Shown: positions 5,584-11,876, numbered from the stretch's first letter. The stretch: DNA of 30,301 nucleotides from Sulfurospirillum sp. (GCA_045047115.1 JASFYR010000030.1:1-30301), one strand, 5' to 3'. The notes: generated from the letters alone by a model not told the origin. Numbers and translations are program-made.

Positions 5584-5615
5584 TATAAAGTAGAGGATTT
5601 CTCCTCTACTTTATA
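5584..5615 (+). terminator. Intrinsic terminator after glnA
   Basis: Perfect 14-bp stem TATAAAGTAGAGGA-tttc-TCCTCTACTTTATA beginning 3 nt after the stop codon. Confidence 0.85.
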
Positions 5616-5951
5616 ACTATACTAAGTAAATTCTACAAAATTGACGATAAAACTATCATTTTTATCATTAAAATCGACAGTTTACACTATATAAAATAAT
5701 AGAGTTAATTTATAAGTTTTATATCTTTTTTATATGATAAAATATCGTTACAAAATGACACACTTTAGAAAAAAATCTACTTTTTTCGCCCACAATATAG
5801 CATTTTACGGTAATTTTTCGATAATATTCATCTGAAGTTTACAAAGGGTACTTTTTAATAGCCTTATATATCCAAAACGAACTTTAAAATTCTCTACGGA
5901 TATAGTAAGTAATGTAAGCTACAAAAAGTAACCCCAATATGGAGATAAATT

Positions 5952-7607
5952 ATGGAAAGTAAAAACACTCTTTTAGTAGATGTTCTTATAGTCGGGGGTG
6001 GACCTTCAGGATTAAGCACAGCCATACACCTTGCAAACCTATTGAATAAAAATGGCGAAAAAAAGCGTATAATGCTCGTAGATAAAGCAAGCGAGATAGG
6101 CTCACATATACTCTCAGGAACACTTGTCAAAGAGCAAGTTTTAAAAGAGCTGCTAAGCAAAGAAGAGTTTGAAAATCTTCCCATAGAGTGTGAAGTTATA
6201 CGTGATGATACTCTCAAATTATCTCAAAAAAAGTACAAAATTCTACCTTTTCATCCTCCACATATGAACAATATAGGAAACAAAATAATTTCACTCTCAG
6301 AAGTCTGCAAATACTTAGCAGATGTTGCTACTAAAAAGGGCGTAGAGATATATCCTGGTTTTTCAATATCCGACCTACTCTATGAGAATGAAAAAATTAT
6401 TGGTGTAAAATGCATAGATACCGGTCTTAGTAAAGATGGTAAAAGAGAGAAAAATTTTCAAGAAGGCACAAAAGTTTTTGCAAAACTGACAATCTTGGCT
6501 GAGGGAAGCAGAGGAAGTTTGGCAAAAAAAGTAAAAAACAGATTTGCCCTCAGAGCAAACTCAAACCCTCAGCTCTACTCAATTGGCATCAAGGAGATAT
6601 GGGATATAAAAGAGGGGAGCATTAAAGAAGGTGAGGTATTTCACACTTTTGGCTATCCGCTAGAAGAAGATGAATTTGGCGGAGGTTTTATATATGGTCT
6701 TGGCAACAACAAAGTTGAGCTCGGTTTTGCTATTGGACTAGACTACAAAGACCCTACATTAGATCCTCATGCATTGATGCAAATCTGGAAACAGCATCCA
6801 TTTTTAAGAAAAATCTTAGAGGGGGGGAAACTTCTTGAGTACGGAGCGAAAACCATACCTGAGGGGGGATGGAACTGTATATCCAAACTCTATACAGACA
6901 ATCTCCTTATAGTAGGCGACAGTGCTGGTTTTGTAGCTATGCCGGCACTTAAGGGGGTACATCTCTCAGTCACATCCGGAATGTGTGCGGCGCAAACTGC
7001 TTACGAGGCACTAAAGGCTGATAACTTCAGCGAAGCTGTGCTCTCACACTACAAAAAGCACATAGACCAAAGCCGAATCAAAAAAGAACTCTATCCGGTT
7101 AGAAATTTTAGAGCGGTTATGAGTGAAGGTCTCTTTGTGGGCGGTTTTAAATTTGGCATACAACTCATCACAAATGGATTTTGCCTATTGACTCCACACC
7201 TCCAAAAAGATAGTCTTAGCACGAAAAAAACCAAAGATTTTAGAGGTAAATTTTTCAAAGAGAGATTTGGAGACAAACTTGAATTTGATAAAAAACTTAC
7301 TTTTGACAAAGATAGCAGTGTTTTTTATTCGGGAACTCATCATGATGAAGAACAGCCTTGCCATCTAGTTGTAAAAGATATAGATGAATTTTCAAGAATA
7401 AATATCAATGAGTATGGTATGCCATGCCAATATTTTTGTCCGGCAGCAGTTTATGAAGAGCATATCGACAAAGATGGCAAACGCTCTTTAAAGATACATC
7501 CTGAAAATTGTATCCACTGTAAAACCTGTGATATAAAGACACCAAATGACGCGATAACATGGAATCCACCTTATGGCGGTGACGGCCCACAATATCAAAA
7601 TATGTAA
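5952..7607 (+). CDS. Electron transfer flavoprotein:quinone oxidoreductase (ETF-QO; functional equivalent of FixC+FixX)
   Basis: GGAG SD at 5941-5944. FAD motif DVLIVGGGPSG, EIGSHILSG, AEGSRGSL, GIKEIW, YGAKTIPEGG, VGDSAG, KGVHL. C-terminal [4Fe-4S] motif CPAAVYE...NCIHCKTCDIK...W..PYGGDGPQY..M. Confidence 0.92.
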   Translation: MESKNTLLVDVLIVGGGPSGLSTAIHLANLLNKNGEKKRIMLVDKASEIGSHILSGTLVKEQVLKELLSKEEFENLPIECEVIRDDTLKLSQKKYKILPFHPPHMNNIGNKIISLSEVCKYLADVATKKGVEIYPGFSISDLLYENEKIIGVKCIDTGLSKDGKREKNFQEGTKVFAKLTILAEGSRGSLAKKVKNRFALRANSNPQLYSIGIKEIWDIKEGSIKEGEVFHTFGYPLEEDEFGGGFIYGLGNNKVELGFAIGLDYKDPTLDPHALMQIWKQHPFLRKILEGGKLLEYGAKTIPEGGWNCISKLYTDNLLIVGDSAGFVAMPALKGVHLSVTSGMCAAQTAYEALKADNFSEAVLSHYKKHIDQSRIKKELYPVRNFRAVMSEGLFVGGFKFGIQLITNGFCLLTPHLQKDSLSTKKTKDFRGKFFKERFGDKLEFDKKLTFDKDSSVFYSGTHHDEEQPCHLVVKDIDEFSRININEYGMPCQYFCPAAVYEEHIDKDGKRSLKIHPENCIHCKTCDIKTPNDAITWNPPYGGDGPQYQNM

Positions 7608-7627
7608 AACTTGGGGGAGTAATAAAA

Positions 7628-9574
7628 ATGACAACAATAATTAGTTTAATGAAACAAGTTCCGCTTCCATCACAAATGAGAATGGGAGATGACGGACTAA
7701 TGGACAGAACAAAAGCAAAATCAATCATAAATATAGATTGCTCTTTTGCATTGGAGGCTGGTTTACAATTAAAATCTATGCTAGGCGAGGCGAGATTGAT
7801 TGTCTGCTCTATGGGCCCTCCATCGTTTGAACAATCCCTCAAAAAAGCAATATCTATGGGTTATGACGAAGCATATCTACTTTCAGACAGAAAATTGGGT
7901 GGTTCAGATACTTTCGCGACAGGACTTGCAATATCGACCATGTTAAAACATCTGGGTTTTGGCAGGGGTGCAAATGAGAATTTTATCATAGTTGCGGGTC
8001 GCCAAACAAGCGATGGCGATACAGCTCATGTACCATCACAAGTTGCACAAAATCTGGGTATCCCGCAAGCCACTTTCATCGAAAATGTAGAGTTTAAAGA
8101 TGGGCATGTTATCGCAAGAAGGATTATAGAGGGAGGTTATCAGATACTAAAACTACCAAAACCTTGTGCTCTATCCTTGACACCAACAGGCATACCTCCA
8201 AGACGACCAAGTCTTTTAGGAGCAGTAAAAGCCAGAGATGCAAAGGTAAATATTTTAAGCGTAAATGATATAAACCTAAGTGATGAAAAGATTGGATTAT
8301 CAGGTTCTCCAACTATAGTGGCCAAGGTAGTAAATATAAAGAGCGAAAGAGCCCCTGTAATTATGAGTAAGGGCAAAAATGCCTCTACTCTGGTAGATAA
8401 TCTTATAGAAAATATCAAATCAGGCAAAAACAGTCTTGAAGTAAAAGAGAAAAAAGAAGTTAAGAAAAAGAATATACCCAAAGACTATGAGAAAGTAGAT
8501 TTTAGAGAAGGGGCTAGCGGAATCCTCACTTGGGCTGAGCTTGCAAACGGCAAAATCACCAGACCTTCGCTAGAGCTTTTGACACCTGCAAAAAATCTTG
8601 CAAACTCACTGGAAAAGGGAACAAAAGTAAGAACTCTTCTTATAGGGCACAATATAAAAGATTTGGCAAATGAGTTGATTTATCACGGAAGCGATGAAGT
8701 GATAATCGTGGACGACGAAAGACTCGAAGAGTATAGAATTCTCCCTTTTTCATCAATCTTTGCACAAGTTATAAAAAAATATAATCCGGAAATTGCCCTT
8801 TTTGCAGCCACAACTGCCGGACGGGAATTGGCTCCCAGAACTGCGGTTAAAACCCAAAGCGGAGTGACGGCTGATTGCACAGGGCTTGAAATAGGCGAAC
8901 ATATAGACAGAAAAAACAAAAAAGTATTTGCTCCTATACTAGAATCAAGAAGGCCGACTTATGGAGAATCAAAACTTGCTACGATTCTGGGTTTTCACTG
9001 CCCGCAAATTTCAACTGCAAGAGCTGGAACTTTTGAAGTGCCAAAGAGAGATGAGAGCTTAAAGGGTAAAATTTCAACATTTAGGCCAAAACTTGACGAA
9101 GAAGATTTTATCACTCAAATCATAAAAACAGTTAGGGGAGACGGAGGCTTGGCAAATCTCTTTGAGGCAGATATCATAGTCTCAGGAGGCAGAGGGACTA
9201 TAAATGATGACATGAAACTCATCAAAGAGTTAACAAACGCACTAAAAGCTCAAGGAATCAATGCTGAATACGCCTCTAGCAGACCTATGGTTGATATAGG
9301 AATAAGCGAATATGCAAGGCAGGTTGGACAAACAGGAAAAACACTCAGACCAAAAGTCTATATTGCCATAGGTATATCAGGAGCCATCCAACACCTAGCA
9401 GGGATGAAAGAGTCCGAAACAATAATTGCAATTAATATACATCCAAATGAGAGCATTTTTTCCAATGCCGATTTTGGAATTGTAGGGGATTATAGTGATA
9501 TAGTGCCAGAGTTAATCAACAGGGTTAAAGATGGCTTTACATTTGGGGTAAAAAGGGAGAATAAAGATGTATAA
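7628..9574 (+). CDS. Fused electron transfer flavoprotein beta-alpha (EtfB-EtfA / FixA-FixB), bifurcating-type motifs
   Basis: N-terminal EtfB (aa ~1-265): KQVP, SMGPP, SDRKLGGSDTFAT, GRQTSDGDTAHV, GSPT. Lys/Glu-rich linker. EtfA from aa ~298: GRELAPR, GVTADCTGL, RPTYG, IVSGGRG, QVGQTGK, GISGAIQHLAGM. Confidence 0.92.
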   Translation: MTTIISLMKQVPLPSQMRMGDDGLMDRTKAKSIINIDCSFALEAGLQLKSMLGEARLIVCSMGPPSFEQSLKKAISMGYDEAYLLSDRKLGGSDTFATGLAISTMLKHLGFGRGANENFIIVAGRQTSDGDTAHVPSQVAQNLGIPQATFIENVEFKDGHVIARRIIEGGYQILKLPKPCALSLTPTGIPPRRPSLLGAVKARDAKVNILSVNDINLSDEKIGLSGSPTIVAKVVNIKSERAPVIMSKGKNASTLVDNLIENIKSGKNSLEVKEKKEVKKKNIPKDYEKVDFREGASGILTWAELANGKITRPSLELLTPAKNLANSLEKGTKVRTLLIGHNIKDLANELIYHGSDEVIIVDDERLEEYRILPFSSIFAQVIKKYNPEIALFAATTAGRELAPRTAVKTQSGVTADCTGLEIGEHIDRKNKKVFAPILESRRPTYGESKLATILGFHCPQISTARAGTFEVPKRDESLKGKISTFRPKLDEEDFITQIIKTVRGDGGLANLFEADIIVSGGRGTINDDMKLIKELTNALKAQGINAEYASSRPMVDIGISEYARQVGQTGKTLRPKVYIAIGISGAIQHLAGMKESETIIAINIHPNESIFSNADFGIVGDYSDIVPELINRVKDGFTFGVKRENKDV

Positions 9575-11837
9575 GGTACTAAGCAAAAGATATCTTTCAC
9601 CTACCATAGTATCTATGGATTTGGAAGCACCATTGGTTGCAGTAAAAGCACAACCCGGACAATTTCTGATCGTAAAGTTGGATGAATATGCCGAGAGAAT
9701 TCCTCTGACTATTTGCGACTATGACAGGGATGCAGGAAGTGTCAACATAATCTTCCAAATAGTTGGTGAAAGTACAAAAGATATGGAAAAAGTTGAACCG
9801 GGAGACTATTTTGAAGATGTTGTCGGTCCACTTGGTCAGCAGTGCGAATTCTTAGAAAAAAACATGGATGAACTCAAGAAAGAGCATTTTGTCTTTATAG
9901 CCGGAGGTGTAGGAGCAGCTCCGATACATCCACAGGTAAAATGGTTTTATAAACATGGTCTAAAGATGGACATCATACTAGGTGCCCGCTCAAAAGGACT
10001 GCTGATACTGGAAGAGGAGTTTAAAAAATACACTCCAAATGTTCATATCTGTACAGATGATGGTTCTTACGGCGTACACGGAAATGTTACAGATGTACTC
10101 AAAAAACTTGTTTTAAGTGATAAAAAAGAGTTCACGCAAGCTGTTGCAATTGGTCCCATGATTATGATGAAATATGCAACAATTATGACAAAAAAACTTG
10201 AAATTCCTACTACCGTAAGTCTAAATCCTCTTATGGTTGATGGTACGGGAATGTGTGGAGCTTGTCGTGTTGAAATAGATGGCAAAGTAAAATTTGCCTG
10301 TGTTGACGGACCTGAGTTTGATGGCTTTAAAGTTAATTTTGACGAGGCGCAAACACGGCTTAGAATGCGTCAGGAAAACACACTCGAAGATGAACACGAA
10401 AATGAAGAGTGCCCAATAGAACATGAAGAGGTTCACGATGCCAAAAAACGATCACTTCCATACACAAGAGAACCACTTCATAGAGTTCACAGTTTTGATG
10501 AAGTGAATCTCGGATATACATTTAAAGAAGTTGTAAAAGAGGCAAATCGCTGTTTTTTATGTAAAAAACCAAAATGTGTCAGCTCTTGCCCTGTTGGCAT
10601 AGATATACCGGCTTTCATAAAAAAACTTAGAGAAGAAGATATCGAGGGAGCTGCAAGCATATTGCTGGCACACACCAAACTGGCTTCTATCTGTGGGAGG
10701 GTCTGTCCACAGGAAAAACAGTGCGAGGGAAGTTGTATCTCCGGCAAAAAAGGAGAGCCTCTTGCTATAGGATTGCTAGAAAGATTTGTCGGCGACTGGT
10801 CACTTCAACATATGGAAACAAAAGTACCAAAGAAAAATGGGAAAAAAGTAGCTATTATAGGTAGCGGACCATCTGGTCTTGCTGCCTCTGCCCAGCTTTC
10901 AGAATTTGGCTACGAGGTAGATGTCTTTGAATCGCTACATAAACTCGGTGGTGTTTTAGCTTATGGAATTCCCTCTTTTAGACTACCAAAAGAGATAGTC
11001 AATGCAGAAATAGACAGAATCAAAAAACTTGGCGTAAAATTTCACACAAATGTAGTAATTGGCAAAACTTTGACGATAGACGAACTGTTTAATGAAGGCT
11101 TTGAAGCTGTATTTGTTGGAAGCGGTGCAGGATTTCCTAACTTTTTGGGAATCAAAGGTGAAAATGCGATGGGCGTCCTGTCTGCAAATGAGTTTCTAAC
11201 AAGAGTAAATCTTATGGGCGGTAACAAGAAGGATTATCATACTCCGACTACAATAGGCGATAAAGTTGCCGTCATAGGTGCTGGAAATGTATCAATGGAT
11301 TCAGCAAGAGTTGCAAAAAGATTAGGAGCGCAAACCAGTATCGTTTACAGAAGAAGCTATGAAGATATCCCTGCCCGCGCTGAAGAAACTGAACACGCCA
11401 AAGAAGAAGGTGTTGATTTTAAACTTTTGACAAATCCTATAGAAATTTTGGCGGATGACAAAGGCAGAGTAAGAGGATTGAAATGTGTCAAAATGGAGCT
11501 TGGGGAACCTGATGAGAGCGGCAGAAGAAGACCGATAGAGATAAAAGGCTCGCAGTTTGTCATAGAAGCCGATACTGTTATCATCTCAATTGGCACCAAG
11601 CCAAATGATTTAGTAACTTCCACAACACGGGGTATGGCAATCACACCAAAAGGCACAATAATTATAGAAGACGACAAAACAACAGCAACAACAAGAGAGG
11701 GAGTCTTTGCAGGTGGCGACATAGTCACAGGAGCTGCCACAGTCATACAAGCCATGGGAGCCGGTAAAAAAGCGGCAAAAGAGATAGATGAGTACATAAA
11801 AAGCAAAGAGTTAAAAAACTCAAAAGTTTCTGCATAG
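9567..11837 (+). CDS. nfnAB: Fused NfnA-NfnB, NADH-dependent reduced ferredoxin:NADP+ oxidoreductase (PyrK-like plus GltD-like; SudBA family)
   Basis: N-part: PGQF, ERIPLTI, GPLG, GGVGAAP, TDDGSYG, and the Asp-ligated [2Fe-2S] motif MVDGTGMCGACR...CVDGPEFD. C-part: CFLCKKPKCVSSCP, CGRVCPQEKQCEGSC...LERF, GSGPSG, YGIPSFRLP, GAGNVSMD, YRRS, GVFAGGD. Overlaps the etf gene by 8 bp. Confidence 0.88.
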   Translation: MYKVLSKRYLSPTIVSMDLEAPLVAVKAQPGQFLIVKLDEYAERIPLTICDYDRDAGSVNIIFQIVGESTKDMEKVEPGDYFEDVVGPLGQQCEFLEKNMDELKKEHFVFIAGGVGAAPIHPQVKWFYKHGLKMDIILGARSKGLLILEEEFKKYTPNVHICTDDGSYGVHGNVTDVLKKLVLSDKKEFTQAVAIGPMIMMKYATIMTKKLEIPTTVSLNPLMVDGTGMCGACRVEIDGKVKFACVDGPEFDGFKVNFDEAQTRLRMRQENTLEDEHENEECPIEHEEVHDAKKRSLPYTREPLHRVHSFDEVNLGYTFKEVVKEANRCFLCKKPKCVSSCPVGIDIPAFIKKLREEDIEGAASILLAHTKLASICGRVCPQEKQCEGSCISGKKGEPLAIGLLERFVGDWSLQHMETKVPKKNGKKVAIIGSGPSGLAASAQLSEFGYEVDVFESLHKLGGVLAYGIPSFRLPKEIVNAEIDRIKKLGVKFHTNVVIGKTLTIDELFNEGFEAVFVGSGAGFPNFLGIKGENAMGVLSANEFLTRVNLMGGNKKDYHTPTTIGDKVAVIGAGNVSMDSARVAKRLGAQTSIVYRRSYEDIPARAEETEHAKEEGVDFKLLTNPIEILADDKGRVRGLKCVKMELGEPDESGRRRPIEIKGSQFVIEADTVIISIGTKPNDLVTSTTRGMAITPKGTIIIEDDKTTATTREGVFAGGDIVTGAATVIQAMGAGKKAAKEIDEYIKSKELKNSKVSA

Positions 11838-11846
11838 CAACCATAA

Positions 11847-11876
11847 AGAGAGAAGGATATAAATACCCTTCTCTCT
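11847..11876. terminator. Probable bidirectional terminator between convergent nfnAB and pbp1A
   Basis: AGAGAGAAGG-atataaatac-CCTTCTCTCT inverted repeat in the 37-bp gap between the two stop codons. Confidence 0.75.

Follow-up and report, generated by a model that had tools for sequence, protein, structure and literature searches.

Electron-transfer flavoprotein genes beside a fused NfnA-NfnB gene in Sulfurospirillum: a candidate menaquinone-linked bifurcating cassette

We analyzed a 30,301-nucleotide stretch of DNA from Sulfurospirillum sp. (GCA_045047115.1 JASFYR010000030.1:1-30301), hereafter the window, which carries a cassette of three genes for an electron-transfer flavoprotein (ETF)-quinone oxidoreductase (QO), a fused EtfB-EtfA (EtfBA) and a fused NfnA-NfnB (Nfn). 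An earlier reading of the same DNA (the original prediction) had proposed that these genes form an electron-bifurcation operon. The features of the locus are as follows.

5952-7607, + strand: ETF-QO open reading frame (ORF), 551 aa, domains PF21162 and PF05187
7628-9574, + strand: fused EtfB-EtfA ORF, 648 aa, EtfB then EtfA in a single chain
9567-11837, + strand: fused NfnA-NfnB ORF, 756 aa, NfnA-like then NfnB-like
5584-5615, + strand: strong hairpin 3' of glnA, probable upstream boundary (-18.4 kcal/mol, z -6.5)
5616-5951, + strand: upstream region with a ribosome-binding site and sequence blocks that loci of the genus have in common; probable promoter (8 same-genus regions aligned)
11847-11876, no strand assigned: hairpin separating nfn from the convergent PBP1A gene; may terminate transcription in both directions (folding; terminator scan, - strand)
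8192-8227, + strand: EtfB residues 189-200, which we take to be the 'recognition loop', with invariant Leu196, modelled into the QO pocket

Domain and structure matches agree with the gene identities originally proposed, and the ORF calls reproduce the layout: three genes on the + strand, with a 20-bp gap between QO and etfBA, an 8-bp overlap between etfBA and nfn, and an upstream region put at ∼340 bp (336 bp from the first hairpin to the first ATG). Judging from this spacing, the three genes are probably co-transcribed. The proposal that hairpin terminators bound the unit stands in part. Both hairpins fold well beyond shuffled sequences on the + strand (z of -6.5 at 5584-5615 and -5.2 at 11847-11876, with 0/200 shuffles equal), but the terminator scan lists only the downstream one, on the - strand, and its total of 8 sites, versus 5.5 ± 2.5 in shuffles, is within chance. 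Because it is listed on the - strand only, the downstream hairpin serves at least the convergent PBP1A gene. The flanking genes, glnA upstream and PBP1A downstream, are housekeeping genes, and the GC content of the cassette (∼0.38-0.40) lies at the top of the window's range, which is not diagnostic. Upstream of QO, short blocks at 5690-5845 are kept in 8/8 same-genus loci, in an alignment that carries no control for relatedness; these are possibly promoter or regulator sites. As originally noted, no acyl-CoA dehydrogenase, lactate dehydrogenase or nif product is found among the 26 window proteins scanned.

The first gene product matches pig ETF-QO (2GMH) over its full length with an E value of 2.5e-114, compared to 3.9e-25 for Thermotoga FixC, and scores 95 bits against the FixC model, for which the cut-off is 610. 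It carries one four-Cys [4Fe-4S] motif (C496, C520, C523, C526), and Y501 and T525 are retained. These features identify it, by sequence, as a canonical single-chain, one-cluster ETF-QO with a predicted FAD, and as neither FixCX nor a FixC-FixX fusion. The original view that six subunits are condensed into three is therefore not borne out, as QO is single-chain in its canonical form and the two real fusions of the cassette have both been published. The position equivalent to pig Thr367, which presumably influences the FAD potential, is Val or Ile in 51/51 QO rows of the clade and Thr or Ser in 18/20 Pseudomonadota rows. For an effect of ETF-QO N338, no supporting paper was found in the literature search.

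When the EtfB half was ranked against the PDB, the five best matches were bifurcating ETFs (E values of 3e-41 to 5e-28), with the other five ETFs reaching 9e-16 at best. The EtfBA zipper, DGDTAH at residues 129-134, is invariant in 44/44 aligned clade rows; that of bifurcating ETFs reads DGDTA(Q/H) and that of canonical ETFs DDDxNQ (PMC8958531, partial text). Also invariant in the 44/44 aligned members are D94, T95, T98, G130 and V231, which correspond, by motif context and by alignments to 4KPU and 7KOE, to the second FAD site described for the Rpa protein (D93, T94, T97, Gly127 and Val232; PMC6764259, partial text). The flavin-site arginines R442 and R552 are likewise invariant (44/44), a feature that is necessary but not diagnostic. 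The signatures can be listed in one line.

EtfBA residues D94/T95/T98, DGDTAH 129-134, P228/V231, R442, R552: bifurcating (two-FAD) signatures, per PMC8958531 and PMC6764259 (both partial text) and PMC10734219

All tested signatures are retained, and EtfBA is thus of the bifurcating (group 2), two-FAD sequence type, FAD-type rather than AMP-type. This is also the type originally predicted. The protein is closer to clostridial Car/Bcd ETFs than to 7KOE. Its AlphaFold model (mean pLDDT 84) has the ETF fold according to a fold search, in which bifurcating and canonical ETFs are intermixed (Z 27.3 to 23), so that the two types are not separated. At three loci (L105, L012 and L153), the fused ETF is split into at least two ORFs, as is QO in L012; sequencing error or decay is possible.

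QO is located directly upstream of EtfBA in 55/55 distinct clade loci from three phyla. This set comprises 21 loci from the window's family, which we infer to be the Sulfurospirillaceae (61 genomes), 18 from other Campylobacterota, 7 from Bacteroidota and 9 of Omnitrophota type; one duplicate was dropped, two QOs are cut at contig ends and one is frameshifted. The conserved cross-phylum unit is QO plus EtfBA, with Nfn as a lineage-specific third gene. We also modelled QO together with a cut ETF (domains III and II, domain I absent). The complex scored 0.78, compared to 0.00 for the best of 3 controls, and the runs had no less than 98% of contacts in common, with a partner pLDDT of 84 or higher. 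The score mark is reached by 116/157 solved complexes and 2/215 mismatched pairs, counts that are only roughly valid for this job. In the model, the Leu196 loop of EtfB lies inside a QO pocket that includes the invariant residues Tyr134 and Phe137. The modelling thus supports binding between QO and EtfBA.

The third gene product scores 1025 bits against PRK12778 (cut-off 1103). It retains the [2Fe-2S] Asp/3-Cys motif and both [4Fe-4S] motifs (RCx2Cx4Cx3CPV, and GRVCPQExQCx3C with its Glu ligand), and GxxER is preceded by a spacer of 11 residues, the length seen in P. furiosus, rather than 13. R472 (bifurcating FAD; equivalent to Tma Arg187) and Y594-R595-R596 (NADP-binding) align with 4YLF_B, and the NfnA half is nearer to NfnI-type chains (E values of 1e-65 and 1.5e-61) than to 5VJ7_B (4e-36). 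Domain order and motifs identify the protein as a predicted pattern-B fused NfnA-NfnB. Homologues bear the database name glutamate synthase small subunit, which we rejected: the NfnA half is present, and a gltBD pair lies separately on contig C5. The fused Nfn is 68-69% identical to proteins of Psychrilyobacter and other Fusobacteriia. In a quick tree, which comes with a long-branch warning and no formal clade test, it groups with Psychrilyobacter-type (Fusobacteriota) sequences at 100% SH-aLRT, apart from the split Nfn that lies near the cassette in two other Campylobacterota genomes (G324 and G568). This separation suggests that Nfn was recruited near the cassette twice, in two separate lineages. 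The genome of the window contains a second, split NfnA/NfnB-like pair (G000:C18:16121-18402; L115:6125-8403, - strand), whose members are 31% and 48% identical to the protein in the window; it sits on a long branch, and a similar NfnA occurs in 8 other family genomes. We also considered whether Nfn replaces a reductase resembling FqrB, as we presume the PF13738 protein to be, and rejected this, as that protein is found in 56/61 family genomes, including that of the window.

Within the family, ETF matches were obtained in 23/61 genomes; two were weak and FixAB-like and were dropped, leaving 21 carriers. NfnA matches were likewise obtained in 23/61 genomes, and removal of three with only a 33-34% paralogue left 20 holders. 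Nfn adjoins ETF in 19 of the 21 carriers, which is 19 of the 20 holders, always adjacent and across six genera. The exceptions are G021 and G081, with the ETF pair only, and G019, with Nfn only. At the G019 locus (L135), the fused Nfn is the sole cassette gene and its flanks resemble those around the full cassettes at L100 and L137, which suggests loss of QO-ETF. Linkage of ETF and Nfn, for which the original prediction had proposed a gene-neighborhood check, is therefore conserved in the family. An obligate coupling of the two is not upheld, the cross-phylum unit being QO plus EtfBA only. Among the other Campylobacterota carriers, split Nfn (∼50% identity) occurs in 6/18, two genes downstream in two of them (G324 and G568). 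Nfn was adjacent to ETF in 0/16 non-Campylobacterota loci, several of which lie on contigs that end close downstream. In a set of 401 phylum genomes, ETF was found in 6 and strong NfnA in 3, all among those 6. The cassette ETF is thus accessory and patchy (6/401, 14/201 and 21/61 genomes), and the cassette is not a general answer for the phylum. Plasmid carriage was not indicated: 213 records matched, all at <60% identity, and the 10 listed are split ETF pairs at 33-37%. As a marker of autotrophy the cassette was rejected, since outside the window's genus ATP citrate lyase is present in 2/10 carriers versus 6/37 non-carriers.

In 16/18 of the other Campylobacterota carriers, the gene after ETF encodes an NAD-type malate dehydrogenase (MDH), and in 10/18 the unit lies within an idh-mdh-fum-suc-oor cluster of the reverse tricarboxylic acid (TCA) cycle. 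Where the second Rossmann strand ends, the cassette MDH has Asp (15/15 examined), and the resident MDH has Gly or Ala (10/10 examined, followed by Arg in 4); the MDH of the window genome has Asp. We take Asp versus Gly/Ala here to mark NAD versus NADP preference, a coenzyme rule for which the literature search turned up no supporting paper. NuoF was found in only 1/18 of these carriers; with 17/18 lacking it, they have few NADH sources. In our reading, the third gene serves as an adaptor between NAD and NADP: Nfn in the family and MDH, sometimes with another Nfn, in other Campylobacterota. At one locus (L129:8350-8845), between etfBA and a second mdh, there are tandem copies of a ∼120-bp element, together with an assembly gap.

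The genome to which the window belongs is 100% complete. It encodes two complex I operons, one of the NuoEF type and one of the epsilon type, and NuoF is present in 20/21 family carriers and 51/61 family genomes. The rationale that complex I lacks NuoEF, part of the original prediction, therefore fails in this genome, and we rejected the cassette as a substitute for missing NuoEF. Also present are ATP citrate lyase, Por, Oor, an uptake hydrogenase, CO dehydrogenase and one 2x[4Fe-4S] ferredoxin. The native ferredoxin has 83 aa (G000:C14:127508-127759). Whole-genome searches yielded no nitrogenase (PF00148), and hence no nif link, and no PntB, RnfD/NqrB or malate:quinone oxidoreductase (PF06039), the last of which led us to drop a cycle based on that enzyme. 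Flavodoxin (PF00258) was not found in the genome either, an absence that is unexpected for the phylum; one YfhL-type ferredoxin is present. No acyl-CoA dehydrogenase domain was detected anywhere in the genome, so that the distant client that the original prediction had named as an alternative is missing here. FAD-linked 2-hydroxyacid dehydrogenase homologues do occur elsewhere in it.

Several other loci in this genome merit description. The NuoEF-type complex I (G000:C25; L116:2659-15921) is arranged in two convergent blocks, nuoA-F on the + strand and nuoG-N on the - strand, with a short NuoG of 504 aa. Three membrane clusters resembling hydrogenase-4 or complex I were seen (G000:C14 at ∼112-122 kb, L118; C8 at ∼101-109 kb, L119). 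Their NuoD-like subunits were missed by an RxCGxC scan, and they may be ion pumps that are linked to ferredoxin and lack a NiFe site. The anaerobic CO dehydrogenase gene (G000:C41; L126:9951-12457) is accompanied by an Fe-S partner gene and stands beside a sensor kinase. Outside this genome, 4/9 Omnitrophota-type loci have, upstream of QO, a gene for a 344-aa protein with only an N-terminal ETF domain, for which NCBIfam gave no match at 1e-20.

L022:486-1520, L023:2183-3217, L026:2309-3343 and L028:3038-4075: extra 344-aa protein

Taken together, we regard it as probable, if narrowly so, that QO and EtfBA form a two-chain analogue of EtfABCX, which would convert 2 NADH to menaquinol and reduced ferredoxin, with Nfn as an NAD/NADP adaptor. 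NADH would reduce the bifurcating FAD of EtfBA; one electron would pass via the electron-transferring FAD to the [4Fe-4S] cluster and FAD of QO and on to menaquinone (MK), the quinone used by Campylobacterota (PMC6682613, partial text), and the other to ferredoxin (Fd). The net reaction, which would be reversible, is 2 NADH + MK + 2 Fd(ox) -> 2 NAD+ + MKH2 + 2 Fd(red). The replaceable third gene would tie this NAD-specific device to the NADP pool, with QO/ETF and Nfn coupled through shared pools and not as one complex. In the window organism, the likeliest net role would be transfer from NADH to reduced ferredoxin and then to NADPH through Nfn.

To assess the energetics, we used standard potentials of -320 mV for NADH, -450 mV for Fd and -74 mV for MK (PMC10734219). 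At standard values, the forward ETF/QO reaction yields -22 kJ, the series 3 NADH -> 2 NADPH + MKH2 yields -47.5 kJ, and 4 NADPH -> 3 Fd(2e) + MKH2 costs +28 kJ. At -280 mV for NADH, -370 mV for NADPH and -500 mV for Fd, the corresponding values are +2.7, -5 and +18 kJ. The NADPH-fed series reaches its limit at an Fd potential of ∼-460 to -480 mV. The stoichiometries of the three options in the original prediction are correct. Of the three, reducing ferredoxin and NADP+ with NADH is thermodynamically the most favorable; conversion of 4 NADPH to 3 Fd is marginal. From these energies, the simplest reading for the window host is that ETF/QO bifurcates in the forward direction while Nfn runs, as it usually does, toward NADPH. 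The QO/ETF system is near equilibrium.

A number of observations weigh against this reading. With NADH at -280, Fd at -500 and MK at -74 mV, the forward reaction stands at +2.7 kJ, so the direction is not fixed. FixABCX of Azotobacter vinelandii confurcates ∼10-fold faster than it bifurcates, and it can reduce quinone without bifurcating (PMC13761266, partial text). An acyl-CoA dehydrogenase domain is present in 14/16 non-Campylobacterota carriers (9 strong), and the GlcD-like and FAD/Fe-S dehydrogenases of the window genome are possible remote clients; that genome also holds the second Nfn-like pair. The cassette does not track autotrophy, with ATP citrate lyase in 13/21 family carriers. The linkage counts include related genomes, which are non-independent observations. 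One caveat regarding the complex model is that it may have scored well because it resembles ETF complexes already solved, 7KOE among them.

The FixABCX rates speak for the possibility, which we consider unlikely, that the same enzymes run in reverse. In such confurcation, menaquinol and reduced ferredoxin would produce NADH for use by MDH or Nfn; the electrons for ferredoxin would come from the epsilon-type complex I, CO dehydrogenase or Por/Oor, and the proton cost of NADH would be halved. Presence of CO dehydrogenase, Por and Oor in the window genome is in keeping with this, as are the NAD-type MDH that follows ETF in most other Campylobacterota carriers and the scarcity of NADH sources where NuoF is absent. 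Malate, moreover, would drive the forward reaction poorly (+37 kJ standard, with a malate potential that we assume). Confurcation, however, requires ferredoxin below ∼-460 to -486 mV and consumes the scarcest reductant, and in the family NuoEF is already able to make or consume NADH. That FixABCX bifurcation is non-obligatory fits instead with a redox valve, an NADH:menaquinone oxidoreductase with loose coupling or none, in which the second FAD serves only to admit NADH, both electron pairs go to quinone, and Nfn is a neighbor that balances NADPH independently. Consistent with this, neither the window nor the surroundings of the cassette in the annotated loci contain a ferredoxin gene, and no flavodoxin was found in the genome. 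We nevertheless think it quite unlikely, given that the bifurcation-site residues are all invariant, that Nfn is found near the cassette in two separate lineages, that a 2x[4Fe-4S] ferredoxin is encoded in the genome, and that low-potential partners seldom adjoin bifurcating ETFs in any case (PMC12042025 section 3.7, partial text).

A further alternative is that ETF carries electrons to QO from a distant flavoprotein dehydrogenase, such as a GlcD-like protein or a 941-aa FAD/Fe-S enzyme, in the manner of canonical ETFs, with the Nfn linkage reflecting shared transfer history. In favor of this, QO is of the canonical type and the window genome has two FAD-oxidase-C proteins; acyl-CoA dehydrogenases are present in many Bacteroidota and Omnitrophota carriers, and a Fusobacterium ETF is reported to act canonically (PMC12630350, partial text). 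Set against these are the FAD-type signature of the ETF, the lack of any such dehydrogenase beside the cassette among annotated neighbors, and the distribution of the acyl-CoA dehydrogenase domain, which is found in 2/38 other Campylobacterota carriers and absent from 36/38. Overall, this explanation appears very unlikely.

A broader proposal can also be made, although we hold it to be doubtful. In part of the Campylobacterota, the cassette may be an unrecognized means of supplying the reverse TCA cycle with reduced ferredoxin. It would be a bifurcating enzyme of two chains, dependent on menaquinone and assembled from a canonical ETF-QO, to which interchangeable adaptors would pass electrons from the NADPH pool. 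In lineages without NuoF, two MDHs would form an NADPH-to-NADH loop driving ETF, as the resident enzyme lacks the NAD-specifying Asp (10/10) and the cassette enzyme has it (15/15). In the window's family, a separately recruited Nfn would be the adaptor, giving two bifurcations in series. The route of ferredoxin and NAD(P) reduction in autotrophic Campylobacterota has been described as an open question, and S. denitrificans yielded none of the known bifurcating complexes (bioRxiv 10.1101/717884, partial text); the same ferredoxin question is raised elsewhere (PMC6682613, PMC4584964; partial text). The cassette is a small, soluble-plus-monotopic candidate for ferredoxin reduction and may serve CO2 fixation in some relatives. 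One close homologue (P0081) is named by its source as from Sulfurimonas gotlandica GD1, a cultured organism, and the idea is therefore testable. If it is true, a canonical ETF-QO can replace FixCX, and the cassette would offer the simplest quinone-linked bifurcating enzyme for structural work.

Literature searches, with subscription papers outside their reach, returned no description of this cassette in Campylobacterota. The accessible text of PMC11406935 does not mention etf, nfn or bifurcat, and that of PMC4518329 has nothing on this system; criteria for surveys are given in PMC6085437 (partial text). The original impression that no such system had been described in the phylum accordingly holds as far as these searches go, but its parts and fusions have each been published. 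Already in print are an etf-nfn operon, a fused Nfn and a fused ETF beside a quinone reductase. What is new is that the partner is a canonical QO, that an NAD/NADP adaptor recurs, and that in relatives the unit is placed among reverse-TCA genes.

The closest functional parallels are EtfABCX of Thermotoga maritima (7KOE) and FixABCX of A. vinelandii, which share with the cassette a bifurcating-type ETF and a membrane quinone reductase (PMC10734219; PMC13761266, partial text), as well as the reversible menaquinone reaction that is proposed for the cassette. The cassette has two chains where these have four, and a canonical ETF-QO with one [4Fe-4S] cluster in place of FixC and the two-cluster FixX. 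Unlike organisms with Fix sensu stricto, the window genome is without nitrogenase. By its predicted properties, the cassette acts as Fix/EtfABCX does, although its subunit composition places it outside that group. From canonical (group 1) ETF/ETF-QO systems it differs in its FAD-type ETF and in the lack of an acyl-CoA dehydrogenase domain in the genome. Compared with pig ETF-QO, the match is full-length and the four cluster Cys and the cluster-tuning Tyr are retained, whereas the pig enzyme normally receives electrons of acyl-CoA dehydrogenases through an AMP-type ETF.

Resemblances extend to the SaETF of Sulfolobus acidocaldarius and the monomeric EtfBA clusters (PMC12042025, partial text), which likewise have an EtfB-EtfA fusion, bifurcating signatures and an ETF/Qor neighbor. 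In the accessible text, those clusters have no Nfn, MDH or Campylobacterota context, although the clade may appear in the network figure. Pattern-B fused NfnAB from Clostridium autoethanogenum, Bacteroidota and Fusobacteriota has the same domain order and cofactor motifs; the review of these proteins calls pattern B uncharacterized and, in its accessible part, makes no mention of 'Campylobact' or 'epsilon' (PMC6405883, partial text). Here, such a protein is linked to a quinone-reducing ETF system. The rex-crt-bcd-etfBA-hbd-nfn unit of Clostridium kluyveri also places Nfn in the same operon as a bifurcating ETF (PMC6405883, partial text). There, the high-potential acceptor is crotonyl-CoA, reached via Bcd, whereas here it would be membrane quinone, reached via ETF-QO, in a respiring organism.

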